A stretch of DNA of 53,815 nt from Chiloscyllium plagiosum. Its lineage: Eukaryota. A model generated the notes under the pieces. It was not told the DNA's origin, ran no database searches, and saw only the letters and a list, made by a program, of their open reading frames with translations. Position 1 is the stretch's first letter. Each line of letters begins with the position of its first letter. Location of the stretch: assembly GCF_004010195.1 (NCBI RefSeq), contig NC_057748.1, positions 4,595,026 to 4,648,840 on the forward strand, read 5' to 3'. Position numbers and translations under genes: made by a program. Positions 2,576 through 53,714 of the stretch are shown here, piece after piece.

Positions 2576-4854
2576 TCAGCTCAGGGTGAGCCTGTCAAAC
2601 AGGTACTCTCCCAGGCCATTCTCTGGGGCTCCCAGTCTCTTCAGGTTGGTGATGTGATCTCCCAGCTTCTTGATCATCTTCACTTGCTCATCCAAGTAAT
2701 GCCTCTCCAGGAAGTCACACAGCTGGAAGAGGAGACAAAGATTAGTTTCAAGGAACAAACCATGCACCTAAATGTGACATCCATTACAGACATGACTATC
2801 ACCACCACATTGTACCCCTCCCTCCCCACAATCAGGGATGCCTTCTGAAATGTTTCTGGATTTCAGCCTGCAGGAGGCAGGTAGATTATAATTGGAATTG
2901 TCCCCCCAGGGAGTAAACAAAGATTTCCTTACAAACGTTTAAGAAAAAAGAAACTCACATGAGGGTCCATGTGGTCAGAGGAGAGTTTGTGCAGATCCAG
3001 CAGACTCTGGTTCACATCCTTCTCCATCTGTAGAGCTCTCTGCATTGCCTCCAGACCATTGCCCCACTCATCCTGCTCTGGCTTCTGGAGGGAGGGAAGT
3101 CAGGAGAGAAAAACCAGCTCATCTCAGACAGGTGGATCTCAGGCTACATCAGATCAGTTCATTATTCCAACAAACCTTGCAAGAGTTGGATTTCAGGCCA
3201 ATTGTTTGACTGACTCCTTTAGTTTTCACTGTTCCTTGAGCTGAAGGCATTTTAGAAGATCCTACTGTAAAACGGTTTTAAGATACTATAATCCAAATGT
3301 ATCCAAAAACATGCACCAATACTGGTAACTCCTTGCTTGGTAAATTTGGATCCATTTGACCAGCCCATTAGCACCATCTTCAAGATAGCAACATCTCCCT
3401 TCCACCCATCAATTCTCTCATTCTTACCTCAGATTAATGGAAGTGTTGGAATAGGCATCAGAGGTTATATAGTTTATCACTTAGGGAAATTTGCTCTCCA
3501 TCCAGTATCCTGGATCATCCCAATTACCTATTGTTTTACACTGCTGCAACAGCAATTTCTTTAATTCAACGCATTGTTTTGGTGAGCAACCTCCAATTCA
3601 AACATTTATTCAATTTCAACACTAGAGGTTGACTGGTATCAACTCTAGTTCACACTAAACCCTAAAAATCTTCAAAGTTTACAGAACCCAACCTTGATAT
3701 CCTGCAGGAGGACTCGGCCTCCACGTTTATTCTGGAATGCCATCAGTTTCTCAGCGTGTTCCCGTTCCTCATGGGACTGCTCCTTGAAGAACTCAGCAAA
3801 GTGACGCAGGGCAACATCATCCCGGTCAAAGTAAGAGGACTGCAAGTGGAGATAAAGTGGGAAGCAAATCTCAATCTTATCGATGGCTCAATCGAGAGCT
3901 AACCCATTCACCATATTGATTTCACTTTCAATTGAAGTGGTAAGAGCAGAACATCTGTGGATTGTGGACTAAAGAGCAGACATTGTTTTGCTCTTTCAGA
4001 AATTAAGATCAATATCAACTGCAACCCTTGGCCTGTATCTTAGGGAGACTGTGCTAGTGTAGCATATAGTATGAGAAGGTCCCAGTTGCTGGACAGTTAT
4101 TAGACATCCTTACACATCAGGAGGAGTTGTGCACTGCGAGAAGCTAGTGAGGTCATTGACCAACTGAAACTCAGGACATGAACATGTTGACTAACAGTAG
4201 CCAAAATCTCAACTACCTCATTACCAACCTGACCCACCTGAATAACCAATGACCCACCATCTACTTGGCACAGAACTGACTGGAAATGTGAATTATCTAT
4301 ATAGCAAAGTATGAAAAAAAAGTGTGCCATTTAAACACCTTTGCTTATATTCAGTAATTAATATACACTTCAACAGGTTAACAACAGCTGGTTACTTGGT
4401 CAAATTTTAAAAATTCCACATTTTGTTTAGAGATTTTTTAAGAAAAGTTAATTATAACCAGCTAAAGAATTAAGACAATACCTACATCTACAGTCAGGAG
4501 GGTAATCACCAGAGGCTACACTGACAAGTTACAATAAACTGAGGACCCTCACCAAAGAGTTAGTTATAATGTAATTAAAGCCTAAAAGACTTTCAACAGG
4601 GTTTCAGGGTGAATGGTGTCCAGGGAAAGAACAACAGTCTCAACATATAATTTGCTCAAGCCCCCATACAACCAAGGAAATTCCTAGATACTCCATACAA
4701 TTATATCACAGTCTTAACTTTAAAACAGAACCTTCAAGACCACAAGCCTCACCATGGAGAGGTAAACATAGGAGGAATAGAGCTCCAGGTTGATCTGCTT
4801 GTTAACAGCATCCTCACAGTCCTTGTGGTAGTTCTGACACACTTGGGAGGCCAT
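2576..4854 (-). CDS. Ferritin subunit (heavy/middle-type), copy 1, intact, 173 aa, C-terminus LTLS
   Basis: Exons 4854-4753 ([34 protein letters not shown]), 3839-3693 (SSYFDRDD...LLQDIK), 3084-2959 (KPEQDEW...SDHMDPH), 2722-2576 (LCDFLERHY...RLTLS*). All introns are GT-AG, phase 0. ATTAAA poly(A) signal at 2499-2494. Confidence 0.96.
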
Positions 4855-5035
4855 TTTCACTATTCCTATTCACTATCACCTAGACAACTCCAAAACTGAA
4901 CCTCACTCCCTCAAGCTCTTGTATTTATCCTCCTGGGACACCCTGCACTCAAACAGGGAGAGATAGCACCAATGATGATTGACAATCCCTGACAGCCAAT
5001 CAGGAATCACCCATGAACATAGGCCCCCAATGAGA
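4855..5035 (-). promoter_or_regulatory. Ferritin copy 1 core promoter and short 5'UTR
   Basis: Minus-strand GGATAAATAC TATA-like box (4930-4921) with Inr-like TCAGTT downstream. CCAAT boxes on + at 4969, 4996 (AGCCAATCAG, NF-Y consensus) and 5027. The module is conserved before all seven exon-1 copies. Confidence 0.75.
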
Positions 5036-5399
5036 GAGAGGGGGTGGGTGTGTGAACCAGAACTGACCAGAGGTGTAGATTAGAGTCAGGTCTGGATGAT
5101 TATTCTGTGATTGGAACAGCAGGAGGTCACTCAGCAGCATCTCAATCAGGTCACTGTGAGTTTGTGTCCTTTTGAAAGAAATAGGTTTGGATTAGGAAAG
5201 GTTTCCAAGTTTTCTTTTAAAATAAACTTTGTTGTAACCAACTGCAAGAGGGGCTCAATGAAGGAGAGGAGTCAGTTTCTCAGCCTGTTGTGTTGGAAAT
5301 GGGAGAGAAAGGTGGGAAATTGGCGCTGGGACAAGGCAACTGTAACAGGAGCAGATGGGGCAGAGACTGGAAAATGTTCCCAATGGCGAAGAGTTCAGA

Positions 5400-5680
5400 A
5401 TACAGGGTGGAGTCACAGTGTAGTGACACAGGATAGACTGTTCAGAACTGAGAAGAGGAGAAAGGTCTTCACCCAGAGAGTGGGGAGTCTGTGGAATTCT
5501 CTGCCACAGAAAGTGGTTGAGGCCAAAATATTGAATGTTTTCAAGAAGGAGTTAGATATAGTTCTTAGGGCTATCGGGATCAAAGTGCAAGGGGAGGGTG
5601 TGGAAAGATGGAATTGAGCTAGATGATCAGCTACAATCATATGGAATGGCCGACTCCCATTCCTTTTTTTCTCCAATTCT
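5400..5680 (+). mobile_element. CR1/L2 LINE 3'-end fragment
   Basis: Translates RRKVFTQRVGSLWNSLPQKVVEA...FKKELD, the CR1-type ORF2 C-terminus. A paralogous copy lies at about 13280-13555. Confidence 0.8.
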
Positions 5681-5939
5681 ATGTTTCAATAACCTGGGTA
5701 GTAAGGGTCTTGTGGCACAGAGGTAGTGTCCCTTTGTCTGGGCCAGGTGGTCTAGGTACAAGACCGTACCTGCTCCAGAGGTGTCTGATAACATCTCTGG
5801 ACAGGTTCATAAGGAAACAACCAGAGCTGATGCAGGCCCAATAGACCGAATGGCCTCCTCCTGTGCCATAACAATTCTGTGATTCTGTGGATGATCTGCA
5901 TCTGAACAGTGTTTCCCTGCCTCTATCTCCTGACTGACC

Positions 5940-51808: not shown

Positions 51809-51896
51809 AGTGATTGTGAAAAGTGAGAATGGTGATGGATGTGAAAACAAAGATGCCGCAACGTTTTTGCATGTTTATAGTTTCACAAAGGCATTG

Positions 51897-52246
51897 AGCG
51901 GCAAAGTGGCTCATTGGTTAACACTGCTATCTCTCAGCACAGGGGGGCCCAAGATTCCACCCTCAAGCAACTGTCTGTGTGGAGTTTACACATTCTCCCT
52001 GTGTCTGCGTGGGTTTCCTTTTGGTGCTCCAGTTTCCTCCCACAGTCCAAAGATGTGCAGGTTATGTTGGATTGTTGATGGGAAATTGTCCCTCACATTC
52101 AGGGATGTGTAGGTAACTGGGTTAGCCATGGGAAATGAGGTATTACAGAGATAAGGTAAGAAGGGGTGTATGGGTAAGATGCTCTTGTAGGGGTCAGTGT
52201 GAATTCAATGGGCAGAATGGCTTACTTTCACACTGTAGGGATTCTA
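51897..52246 (+). mobile_element. V-SINE
   Basis: tRNA-like head, V-domain, and tail ending cacactgtagggattcta. Confidence 0.78.
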
Positions 52247-52962
52247 AGATGGATGACTGAAGATTGAAATTTTATGAATCATGTGGCATTTTTCAAACAC
52301 TTGAGACCAACATAAACAATGGGTAATTACAACTGCAATATCAACCAGGTTGGCACCCTTTCAGAGGGGTAATGATACAACCACATGGAGCAGAATGTAT
52401 AAAGATTAAATCATTGGGCTACAATCAGTGCAGATTTACACATTGTTAGTTGTCAACCGATTGCTGCGAACAGAAATGGTTGGAGAACATTTTGGGGGCA
52501 AGAATGGAATATTCAGCTCAGTCGTCTGGATTATTTCCTTAAATATACAAGGAACCTTCTTTTTGGAATTCCTGGAGCAGAATTCCTTTTCCTAATATCT
52601 TTACTGGACAAGAACTGAAAGATGTTATTTGATGAGCACTGTGGCCCGATATTAATTGGCTCCCTTACAAAAGGAGACAGCAATTATAATGAGGTTTGAT
52701 TGAGTGTAGCATGTTTTGGTGCTTTGAATCCAGAGACCTTGCACTGAGCTCTGAATGACCAATGAGGTCACAAATCATACTTCTTCACAACTGACAGACA
52801 TTCATCCAAACAAGTAAACAAAAAAGTACAATATCAAGCAGTTTATTTACAGTTGGCATATTTCACAATAGAGGGCAGGTCACAGTTTAAGAAAAGTAAC
52901 CTTACTCTACACACATTTCCCATTAATACCAAAGGTTACACAGCTTGCTCCCTGCAGTCAGT

Positions 52963-53714
52963 TCAGTCACTCTCCCCCAGGGTGAGCCTGTCAAACAGGT
53001 ACTCTCCCAGGCCATTCTCAGGGGCTCCCAGTCTCTTCAGGTTGGTGATGTGATCTCCCAGCTTCTTGATCATCTTCACTTGCTCATCCAAGTAGTGCCT
53101 CTCCAGGAAGTCACACAGCTGGAAGGCAAAGAGAAAATCTGATTATGTCAAGATCAGCTTGACTTTTCTCCAAGACTGGTATTCTCCTCAATATGGGGGA
53201 AGTGGACAGTTGAGGAAGTGGAGGCTCATACAAGTGCAACATTTAAAAGGCATTTGGACGAATTTATGAAAAAAAAGGAAGGTTTTGGAGGGATATGGGC
53301 TGGGTGCTGGCAGGTGGGACTAGATCGAGTTGGGATATCGGGTCAGCATGGACAGGTTGGACCGAAGGGCCTGTTTCCATGCTGTACGTCGCATGGACTC
53401 TGACAGTTAAGGGATGTCACAGATTGCTTAACAGCAGTGAGAAAGTGCTCAGATCATGACTACACCAGAAGCTTGGTCCACTCCCAGGCTCGACTCACTA
53501 CAATTTAGATACAAAATCGGAGGCTAAAGGGACAAGTGTCTTATCTATTTAACGCAAGAGCCCAGACATAAATACATCAAAAACTCACATGAGGGTCAGT
53601 GTGGCCAGAGGAGAGTTTGTGCAGATCCAGCAGACTCTGGTTCACATCCTTCTCCATCTGCAGAGCTCTCTGCATTGCCTCCAGACCATTGCCCCACTCA
53701 TCCTGCTCTGGCTT
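52963..53714 (-). CDS. Ferritin subunit, copy 10, partial (exons 3-4; exons 1-2 would lie beyond the window), C-terminus LGESD
   Basis: Exons 53714-53589 and 53118-52963 are open with intact splice sites. AATAAA at about 52847-52842. Confidence 0.9.
53212..53401 (+). mobile_element. CR1 3'-end insertion in intron 3 of copy 10 with a 7-bp target-site duplication
   Basis: gacagtt at 53205-53211 and 53402-53408. The homologous intron of copy 6 has a single gacagtt (about 28608). Confidence 0.75.

Follow-up and report, generated by a model that had tools for sequence, protein, structure and literature searches.

Near-identical exons between diverged introns in a tandem ferritin gene array of the shark Chiloscyllium plagiosum

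The coding exons of a ferritin gene array in Chiloscyllium plagiosum are 94–99% identical between copies, whereas the introns can be aligned in only 3 of 21 copy pairs and in the other 18 cannot. We analyzed a stretch of 53,815 nt containing part of this array (hereafter the window) and find concerted evolution at the level of the exon highly probable. It is likely that the window is a segment of an ancient elasmobranch ferritin cluster, made up of the ferroxidase-type shark subfamily (here type I; the L-like shark subfamily is called type II), and that it is a bulk-dosage array kept by conversion and controlled at transcription. Bulk iron storage in the ovary is its rather likely role. The initial annotation could not tell whether the cluster had been described; it is on record, in one paragraph of a 2024 Greenland-shark preprint (10.1101/2024.09.09.611499), the only description found in the literature searched. 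The discovery value is limited to this extent, as the cluster itself is already reported.

RESULTS

Layout of the array

Exon-by-exon BLAST and translation gave ten ferritin units on the minus strand (Table 1), with all exon-4 copies lying within positions 2576–53714. Six units are intact, one is a pseudogene, two are fragments and one is cut by the window edge. This confirms the ten-copy same-strand array with six intact genes that the initial annotation had noticed, as well as its passage beyond the right edge, where exons 3–4 of C10 run off. Seven of the 10 units have the complete set of coding exons (102, 147, 126 and 147 or 156 nt), separated by GT..AG introns, and show the four-exon, three-intron layout described for animal cytosolic ferritin (PMC4117605). 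The description as intron-containing genes accordingly holds for these seven and not for the other three, and the copies are tandem, intron-bearing genes rather than retrocopies. In six of the seven complete units (C1, C3, C4, C7, C8 and C9) the reading frame is open.

Intact copies differ from each other at 6–10 of 172 residues. Private amino-acid changes, claimed for every copy, were found for the intact ones but not for C10, which shows 0 differences from C7 and C8 across its 89 visible residues. Short and long tails are separated by a 14-nt indel. Residues 1–172 of C1 agree without differences with C. plagiosum XP_043535505.1 (dataset label P0147). Intron 3 of the fragment C6 is related to that of C10, and a contig of run X1 (record 6) covering 28488–29383 runs through part of C6. 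Tandem Repeats Finder reported a single 25-nt row in the window, and the array is thus not a simple repeat. A gene flanking the array was not identified within the window.

Table 1. Ferritin units and associated features in the window
Feature	Positions	Strand	Details
C1 promoter and short 5' leader	4855..5115	-	TATA-like box 75 nt before ATG, several CCAAT-type boxes
Promoter core at all 7 exon-1 copies	4933, 12829, 19536, 25600, 34251, 42733, 47335	-	
C1	2576..4854	-	intact ferritin gene, 173 aa, short tail; exon BLAST and translation
C1 exons	4753-4854, 3693-3839, 2959-3084, 2576-2722	-	
C2	10461..12763	-	pseudogene, whole-unit sister of C1; ATG lost, stop at codon 4
C3	16933..19470	-	intact, 173 aa; intron 3 and 3' flank in common with C1/C2, intron 1 not
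C4	22723..25521	-	intact, 173 aa
C5	26659..27380	-	exons 2-4 only, without exon 1 or promoter
C6	28367..28824	-	fragment: exon 4, intron 3 and last 24 nt of exon 3
C7	31535..34172	-	intact, 176 aa, long tail
C8	38581..42654	-	intact, 176 aa, long tail
C9	44963..47256	-	intact, 173 aa
Assembly gap	50948..51447	.	500 N, separates C9 from C10
C10	52963..53714	-	exons 3-4 of long-tail copy, remainder beyond window

That the array is an assembly artefact, built from duplicated haplotypes or mis-joined copies, is exceedingly unlikely. The window does contain one 500-N gap, and short-read contigs are broken by the near-identical exons. However, the closest pair of copies has introns and flanks that diverged by 15–27%, while in contigs from the DNA-type runs X1 and X5 (two separate studies) the unique pieces of other individuals differ by 0–8 letters per listed piece of 313–2328 nt. 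These contigs cover 30 of 30 bins of 16700–34600 and recover the unique introns in both studies; since the repeated exons interrupt them, they are evidence for the pieces and not for their order. Several shark species also have many copies annotated on one chromosome. The summed contig depth over exons is tens of times that of the flanks, a value that is not a copy number.

Exons are alike while introns have diverged

Between copies dS ranges from 0.023 to 0.131 (21 pairs), and omega is 0.25, indicating purifying selection. In the pair C1/C2 we observed 14 mismatches in 522 exon positions (4 of 108 at synonymous sites) compared to 393 in 1690 aligned intron positions (18.6% as a BLAST-based figure; Fisher p 1.4e-8, taking intron positions >100 nt away from exons for comparison). 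Divergence is 17–20% upstream and 22% in the 3' flank; the 3' UTR shows 4 mismatches in 86 positions and the flank further out 106 in 481. Similarity ends within ~15 nt of the splice sites, with identity falling from 0.92–0.99 within the exon edges to 0.24–0.30 in the outermost intron bins (31–60 nt in). The 5' leader is not homogenised between copies, and no loss is seen among the window's 24 complete introns.

The distribution of variants points to exchange between copies. Among 10 informative exon sites, 24 of 45 site pairs are four-gamete incompatible and no site is exclusive to C1 and C2. Recurrent mutation is expected to give 2.6–4.4 shared sites, against the 10 observed (P for 10 or more, <= 0.004). 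Mosaics of introns and flanks are present in C3 and C5, the latter combining a C1/C2-like remnant of intron 1 with a 3' flank of the C7/C8/C10 class. Judged by their diverged introns and flanks, unalignable in most pairs, the units are old. A dating by the epaulette-shark mutation rate was dropped, as that rate is given per generation.

The copies form a ferroxidase-type class outside the FTH1 clade

The Pfam ferritin domain PF00210 was found with exon 2 (44.4 bits) and exon 3 (25.8 bits; curated cut-off 24.5), and no Pfam family was found with exon 1 or exon 4 alone (2 of 4 exons). Against the PDB, exons 2 and 4 gave ferritin matches at E 1e-21. Together with the shark relatives described below, these matches bear out the reading as a cartilaginous-fish ferritin, and the encoded proteins would be expected to form the 24-mer cage and to mineralise iron. 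Residues E24, Y31, E58, E59, H62, E104 and Q138 (window numbering), which we take to be the ferroxidase ligands, are invariant in all six intact copies and the same in the FTH1 and frog M rows. On these residues we predict a ferroxidase-type (H/M) chain, with a position 141 unlike H and M chains: it is M or L in the window copies, D in frog M and S or A in FTH1. Relative to frog M ferritin the window copies have no N-terminal extension.

In a phylogeny with FTH1, FTL and M chains the FTH1 clade, including skate and chimaera FTH1, is supported at 95/95 with the window copies outside it, and these fall into a separate elasmobranch clade (99/99); deep branches are below 80, and an AU test did not reject type I and FTH1 as one clade (p 0.344). 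The copies keep the ferroxidase glutamate E59 and are not FTL. Type II carries K59 and groups with tetrapod L (96/93); it is absent from the window and lies on the same chromosomes as type I. An initial tree without shark FTH1 had left type I unplaced and was superseded by the tree containing it. The species' own FTH1 (dataset label P0472) differs from the window copies at 42–47 of 172 residues. From one compared shark to another, FTH1 varies by 1–3 of 172 residues. In Stegostoma and Scyliorhinus, FTH1 is located on chromosomes other than that of the array. Identity between the window proteins and macaque FTH1 is 70%.

Promoters, leaders and expression

At all seven exon-1 copies a TATA-like box lies 62–75 nt before the ATG, with CCAAT-type boxes. 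Taking the transcription start from this box gives inferred leaders of 32–45 nt. Rfam includes an iron-responsive element (IRE) model. A search of the window gave no IRE match at the gathering score and none among the 6 matches to E 10; a pattern scan, run on inferred start sites, found none in the seven inferred leaders. Both scans were run without a positive control. The single IRE-like site on the minus strand lies ~820 nt upstream of the C3 ATG, far upstream of the C3 TATA-like box. In 9 of the 10 units no U-rich CPE-type element lies within the 160 nt scanned at the 3' end; the fragment C6 is the one exception, which leaves masking of maternal mRNA without support.

In the one RNA run of the same species used (X21, 12.96 million records, of unstated tissue) exon-bin depth was 0–0.62 and no splice joint was found. 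In run X16, likewise of unstated tissue, from another species and RNA by guess only, a contig with four exons spliced together has a depth of 554. For the Greenland shark, one sentence of the preprint gives the expression of the cluster as ovary-specific, in bulk tissue (10.1101/2024.09.09.611499). Exon reads cannot be assigned to single copies, so individual genes are traceable only by their 3' UTRs and introns.

Shark proteins group by order

We retrieved 260 proteins, of which 165 were within 170–184 aa; with a gar protein and the six window proteins this gave 172 rows. Among them are 101 shark type I proteins with a complete body, 86 of these with a short or long tail. The sample is biased, as it consists of exon 4 matches and, for each cluster, of the 15 members listed. 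The queries were exon 4 and known relatives rather than a spliced full-length window protein, and closer full-length relatives may exist. Clustering at 90% identity places the relatives in groups of 127, 69, 180 and 138 members, which come mostly from one chromosome per species, with many ferritin copies annotated by RefSeq. They belong to the same protein family as the cluster of Sahm et al. and are multicopy on single chromosomes in other sharks.

On the tree of the 86 proteins the order label changes 6 times (minimum 5; shuffled mean 41.4; 0 of 200 shuffles as low), and the tail type 23 times (shuffled 28.8; 8 of 500 as low), the tail label being slightly clustered. Protein distance is 0.069 inside one order irrespective of tail and 0.13 between orders. 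Both tails were found in 5 of 6 shark orders, and the short tail could have more than one origin. R132 is present in 42 of 42 carpet-shark rows and T in 43 of 44 other rows, in both tail types. Although the copies are old, paralogs are more alike within than between lineages, across orders at the protein level only. Taken together, the homogenised exons and the grouping of proteins by order fit concerted evolution and not divergent birth-and-death.

DISCUSSION

We propose that the short exons, held alike by purifying selection, remain open to ectopic gene conversion, which, with occasional unequal crossover, would spread new variants through the array, while the introns would have drifted below the exchange threshold. 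Copies would also be lost by deletion and point mutation. The array may serve to raise dosage, controlled by transcription and not by iron sensing, and is predicted to make one cytosolic ferroxidase subunit in bulk, probably paired with the L-like type II subunit of the same chromosome. The bulk ferritin probably stocks iron in the ovary or egg.

The initial annotation had proposed a birth-and-death expansion, with diverging paralogs whose private residues would make the 24-mer cages combinatorial. We consider this unlikely, although gene death in the array is real (C2, C5 and C6 are dead or dying), each intact copy has private residues, and the L-like subfamily on the same chromosomes would permit two-chain heteropolymers. 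Recent births should share introns, which 18 of 21 pairs do not, and old independent copies should have a high dS, not one of 0.02–0.13. Residues specific to an order, such as R132, are fixed in copies of both tail types. For the evolution of the coding sequence birth-and-death is therefore largely refuted. Combinatorial cages are weakly supported as well: substitutions are few, omega is low and the ferroxidase positions are avoided, and the residues proposed for diagnostic peptides are mostly absent from 95 relatives of the family sample (F78 in 0, Q83 in 1, D148 in 0 and L149 in 0). Dosage as the likely purpose, also suggested there, is supported. Also unlikely is that copies never exchanged sequence and that selection acting on silent sites too, through codon use, splicing signals or mRNA structure, keeps the exons alike. 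A GC3 of 0.65–0.68 compared to an intron GC of 0.39–0.41 speaks for this, the sharp exon boundaries are equally compatible with it, and a low shark mutation rate is reported (PMC10587355). However, it does not account for the fixation of lineage-specific residues in every copy sampled, for the surplus of incompatible variants that copies share, or for the intron mosaics. Array proteins are ~13% apart between orders, while FTH1 varies by 1–3 of 172 residues in the sharks examined for it, and so they are not frozen.

Concerted evolution could also proceed in the oocyte with spliced RNA or cDNA as the template, the array being IRE-free and expressed in the germ line. This was considered as homogenisation stops near the splice sites and in C1/C2 runs through the 3' UTR and not the flank; we regard it as very unlikely. 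The retained introns and the unhomogenised 5' leader speak against it, and DNA-level conversion seeded by selected exons gives the same pattern. A different function for an array that evolved in the same way, in blood-forming or immune tissue or in defence against oxidative stress, is conceivable but doubtful. The epigonal organ adjoins the shark gonad. The statement on the ovary comes from bulk tissue of another species (10.1101/2024.09.09.611499), and for the 14-copy fthl27 array of the hadal snailfish, which reduced ROS in transfected cells, defence against oxidative stress was proposed (PMC10746142). On the other hand, the preprint terms the expression tissue-specific to ovary, and the near-absent reads in X21 argue against broad expression.

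If our preferred reading of a conversion-kept dosage array is true, it corrects the label of >100 'FTH1' genes per shark genome and describes a class of vertebrate ferritins outside IRE control, which may supply very large eggs with iron. The array would further allow gene conversion to be studied on blocks of only 100–150 nt, sustained across shark orders at a very low mutation rate. Exon-confined homogenisation, the placement outside FTH1 and the missing IRE appear in no paper searched, a search confined to openly accessible papers and the main texts of preprints; the homogenisation may have been described elsewhere. The later journal version of a second Greenland-shark preprint reportedly describes an expanded FTH1b. 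The preprint itself gave 0 matches for ferritin, fth and ferroptosis (10.1101/2025.02.19.638963).

Comparison with known systems

The Greenland and white shark clusters are likewise tandem and ancient, with mostly full-length copies and two chain classes (10.1101/2024.09.09.611499), and the white-shark relatives share a clade with the window copies. Sahm et al. label them FTH1 and FTL with at least 90% identity to the human orthologs, whereas the window proteins fall outside the FTH1 clade; the main text of that preprint has 0 matches for 'conversion', 'concerted' or 'responsive' (10.1101/2024.09.09.611499). Amphibian and reptile ferritins of 176 aa, named heavy chain A/B, higher and middle subunit, and fish M chains are alike in length class and ferroxidase residues. 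Turtles, lizards and frogs have several such copies per genome, as sharks do, and in the PDB a close relative scored highest against frog ferritins (289 and 286 bits; mammalian-type H ~280). In rRNA, histone and ubiquitin dosage arrays many copies make one product, with coding identity far above spacer identity. Unlike in these, the homogenised blocks of the shark array are short exons between non-homologous introns.

Salmon H and M chains are reported to have IREs (PMC4117605), while none was found for the window copies. The X-linked FTHL/FTHL17 loci of dog are old, >96% identical within the species and proposed to undergo gene conversion, in continuous blocks of ~550 nt at six dispersed, lineage-specific loci that are partly pseudogenes (PMC5363321). 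In the window, by contrast, four separate exons of 102–156 nt are homogenised in intron-bearing genes, and across shark orders. The fthl27 genes of the hadal snailfish are also a tandem ferritin expansion in fish read as dosage, broadly expressed and with 14 copies versus 3 in the compared snailfish (PMC10746142); the array in sharks exceeds it by far in size and age.

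Organization of the ferritin array

When the window was compared with itself, four short segments recurred on a single strand at 94–100% identity. We then searched with the exons of copy one and translated the spliced reading frames, which gave ten ferritin units on the minus strand (C1–C10, left to right), spaced by 1.7–8.0 kb (mean 5.6 kb). Four coding exons with GT..AG introns were observed in seven of ten units and the reading frame is open in six, which bears out the initial annotation of at least ten same-strand ferritin copies, six of them intact. In C2 the start codon is gone and codon 4 is a stop, C5 is without exon 1 and promoter, and C6 retains exon 4 plus a 24-nt part of exon 3. 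C10, preceded by a 500-N gap, is truncated by the window edge. Two DNA-type runs from separate studies have contigs in which the unique pieces listed occur, with 0–8 differences each from the window, so the units do not represent duplicated haplotypes; these contigs show pieces, and the order of the units is that of the assembly.

Positions of the array and of further features in the window
Position	Feature	Observation
2576–53714	Ferritin array	
16700–34600	Region covered by contigs of the two DNA-type runs	30 of 30 bins
1–1900	Broken stretch, many stops and frameshifts	Putatively, by eye, like an env transmembrane region of endogenous retroviruses with a purine-rich tract and LTR-like sequence behind it; Pfam family in 0 of 3 unbroken pieces
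6950–7068	Near-perfect 119-nt inverted repeat (97.5%; self-comparison), probably an interspersed repeat	Three sub-threshold miRNA-like Rfam matches; matched in part at 51629–51705
8170–8460	Direct duplication of ~145 nt (self-comparison)	96.6% identity
25655–26848, 27446–28042, 29237–31027	Very high-copy interspersed repeats flanking truncated C5 and C6	Contig depths adding up to as much as roughly a million

Relationship to other ferritins

Pfam recognises ferritin above its cut-off in exons 2 and 3 and not in exons 1 or 4 taken singly. Searching with exon 4 gave 258 proteins out of 282 candidates; nearly all of the 120 matches listed were shark and ray ferritins. Residues 1–172 of C1 are identical to a Chiloscyllium plagiosum RefSeq protein and the other five intact copies lie 4–6 residues from their closest retrieved relative, which marks the window as bamboo-shark DNA. 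At 90% identity, related proteins group into clusters with as many as 180 members that span shark orders and sit mostly on one chromosome per species. Several sharks have RefSeq models of 264–267 aa (P0010, P0233, P0235, P0238, P0240), ~90 residues beyond the ferritin chain; they are likely annotation chimeras joining near-identical exons of adjacent copies, read-through splicing being a possible alternative. Three vertebrate-type ferritin fragments tagged bacterial in public databases (P0234, P0489, P0384; two within shark clusters) are probably contamination or mislabelling.

The residues E24, Y31, E58, E59, H62, E104 and Q138, the ferroxidase ligand positions, are kept in the six intact copies and are the same in FTH1 and frog M rows, while position 141 (M or L) differs from both. 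In a tree of 46 rows the intact copies fall inside an elasmobranch clade (support 99/99), and the FTH1 clade (95/95) includes skate and chimaera FTH1 and excludes them; a separate Chiloscyllium FTH1 lies 42–47 residues away. A sister relation of the window clade to FTH1 was unrejected in the AU test (p 0.344). Judged from these conserved positions and the clade outside FTH1, the genes are predicted to function like H or M chains and should not be labelled FTH1.

Beyond the window, a second multicopy subfamily (type II) with K59 is found on the same chromosomes and joins tetrapod L chains (96/93); its members include P0092, P0098, P0102 and P0205, the last identical across three hemiscylliid species, and it probably corresponds to the copies called 'FTL' in the published cluster. 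On the cluster chromosome of several sharks lies a further ferritin in low copy number (P0471, P0459, P0486–P0495), likewise absent from the window, which groups weakly with FTH1 (90/75) and may be a housekeeping gene neighbouring the array. Skate and stingray relatives of the window subfamily (type I; P0108, P0069, P0100, P0219) have several altered ferroxidase-site residues, which suggests that batoid evolution has been faster or relaxed here. Turtles possess many 176-aa 'heavy chain A-like' ferritins (P0265–P0291, clusters of 20–50 members), a possible sign that another yolk-rich lineage underwent a parallel expansion.

Promoter and expression

All seven copies with exon 1 share one core promoter, with a TATA-like box 62–75 nt upstream of the ATG; CCAAT-type boxes number three to five within 300 nt. 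Scanning the 32–45 nt leaders, defined by inferred start sites, gave no iron-responsive element (IRE) loop, and Rfam reported no IRE in the window, both searches being run without a positive control; the sole IRE-like pattern lies ~820 nt upstream of the C3 ATG. IREs are described for salmon H and M mRNAs (PMC4117605).

In an own-species single-cell run of unspecified tissue (12.96 million records, ~2/100 of the run), ferritin exon bins reached depths of 0–0.62 with zero splice joints, and mapped reads fell mostly on interspersed repeats, including those around C5 and C6. A run of another species, RNA by guess, contained a 630-nt contig of depth 554 with all four exons joined and 8 differences in 540 nt. 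Spliced products of the family are abundant somewhere, as seen in the other species, and the family is near-silent in the single own-species sample.

Divergence of exons and introns

Among the seven complete copies dS ranges from 0.023 to 0.131 and dN from 0.015 to 0.029; omega, pooled over the six intact ones, is 0.25. Only 3 of 21 pairs have introns that can be aligned, over 92%, 11% and 7% of their length, and in all copies ungapped identity falls from 0.92–0.99 at exon edges to 0.24–0.30 in the outermost intron bins. C1 and C2, sisters over the whole unit, served as internal control: 14 of 522 exon positions are mismatched (synonymous 4/108) vs 393 of 1690 aligned sites in the introns (18.6% by BLAST), 17–20% in upstream DNA, 15% in the promoter and 22% in the 3' flank. 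None of the ten informative coding sites unites these two, 24 of 45 site pairs are incompatible, and only two sites are CpG transitions; a star-tree null with recurrent mutation predicts 2.6–4.4 shared sites vs the 10 observed (P at most 0.004). C5 combines a C1/C2-like intron 1 (81–85%) with a 3' flank like that of C7, C8 and C10, and C3 has the C1/C2 intron 3 and flank but another intron 1. Such mosaics indicate that non-coding segments have been shuffled between units.

Comparison across shark orders

Short (173 aa) and long (176 aa) C-terminal types, a 14-nt indel apart in the window, are both present in five of six sampled shark orders. On a tree of residues 1–171 from 86 proteins, a sample biased by mode of retrieval, the order label required 6 changes, where 5 is the minimum and shuffled labels averaged 41.4; the tail label required 23, where shuffled labels averaged 28.8 and 8 of 500 shuffles were as low. 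Protein distance is 0.069 within orders, tails alike or not, and 0.13 between orders; R132 and Q80, among others, are fixed in all 42 carpet-shark rows. Grouping by order over tail, together with the low within-order distance, points to concerted evolution at the protein level. The short tail may instead have arisen repeatedly, and selection on silent sites is a less likely source of the exon likeness, the cross-order contrast here being one between proteins. RNA-templated conversion in the germ line would be an unlikely route to homogenisation because zero introns were lost and the 5' leader is unhomogenised.

Proposed mechanism and function

We propose that selection holds the exons similar enough for ectopic conversion, which would homogenise them lineage by lineage, while the introns would have drifted beyond its reach, and unequal crossover and deletion would gain and lose units. 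The divergence, mosaic, incompatibility and cross-order analyses make this evolutionary part quite probable. Many promoters would then supply essentially one ferroxidase-type subunit independently of cytosolic iron sensing, and this subunit would probably join chains of the L-like subfamily to build storage cages in ovary or egg. The ovarian function is somewhat favoured by one published sentence on another shark, the Greenland shark, whose cluster it describes as ovary-specific in expression (10.1101/2024.09.09.611499), and by our inference. Combinatorial cages built from private residues, as the initial annotation had suggested, now seem a weak proposal: such residues are few and mostly missing from 95 relatives.

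Comparison with known systems

Our literature search, with most subscription papers and preprint supplements outside its coverage, returned no account of conversion, concerted evolution or IREs for ferritins of sharks. Homogenisation confined to exons across shark orders, the non-FTH1 identity of the genes and their missing IRE appear to be new. The array itself was already described in kind by Sahm et al., whose main text is without mention of conversion, concerted evolution or IREs (10.1101/2024.09.09.611499). Gene conversion has already been proposed for ferritin-like loci of the dog (PMC5363321).
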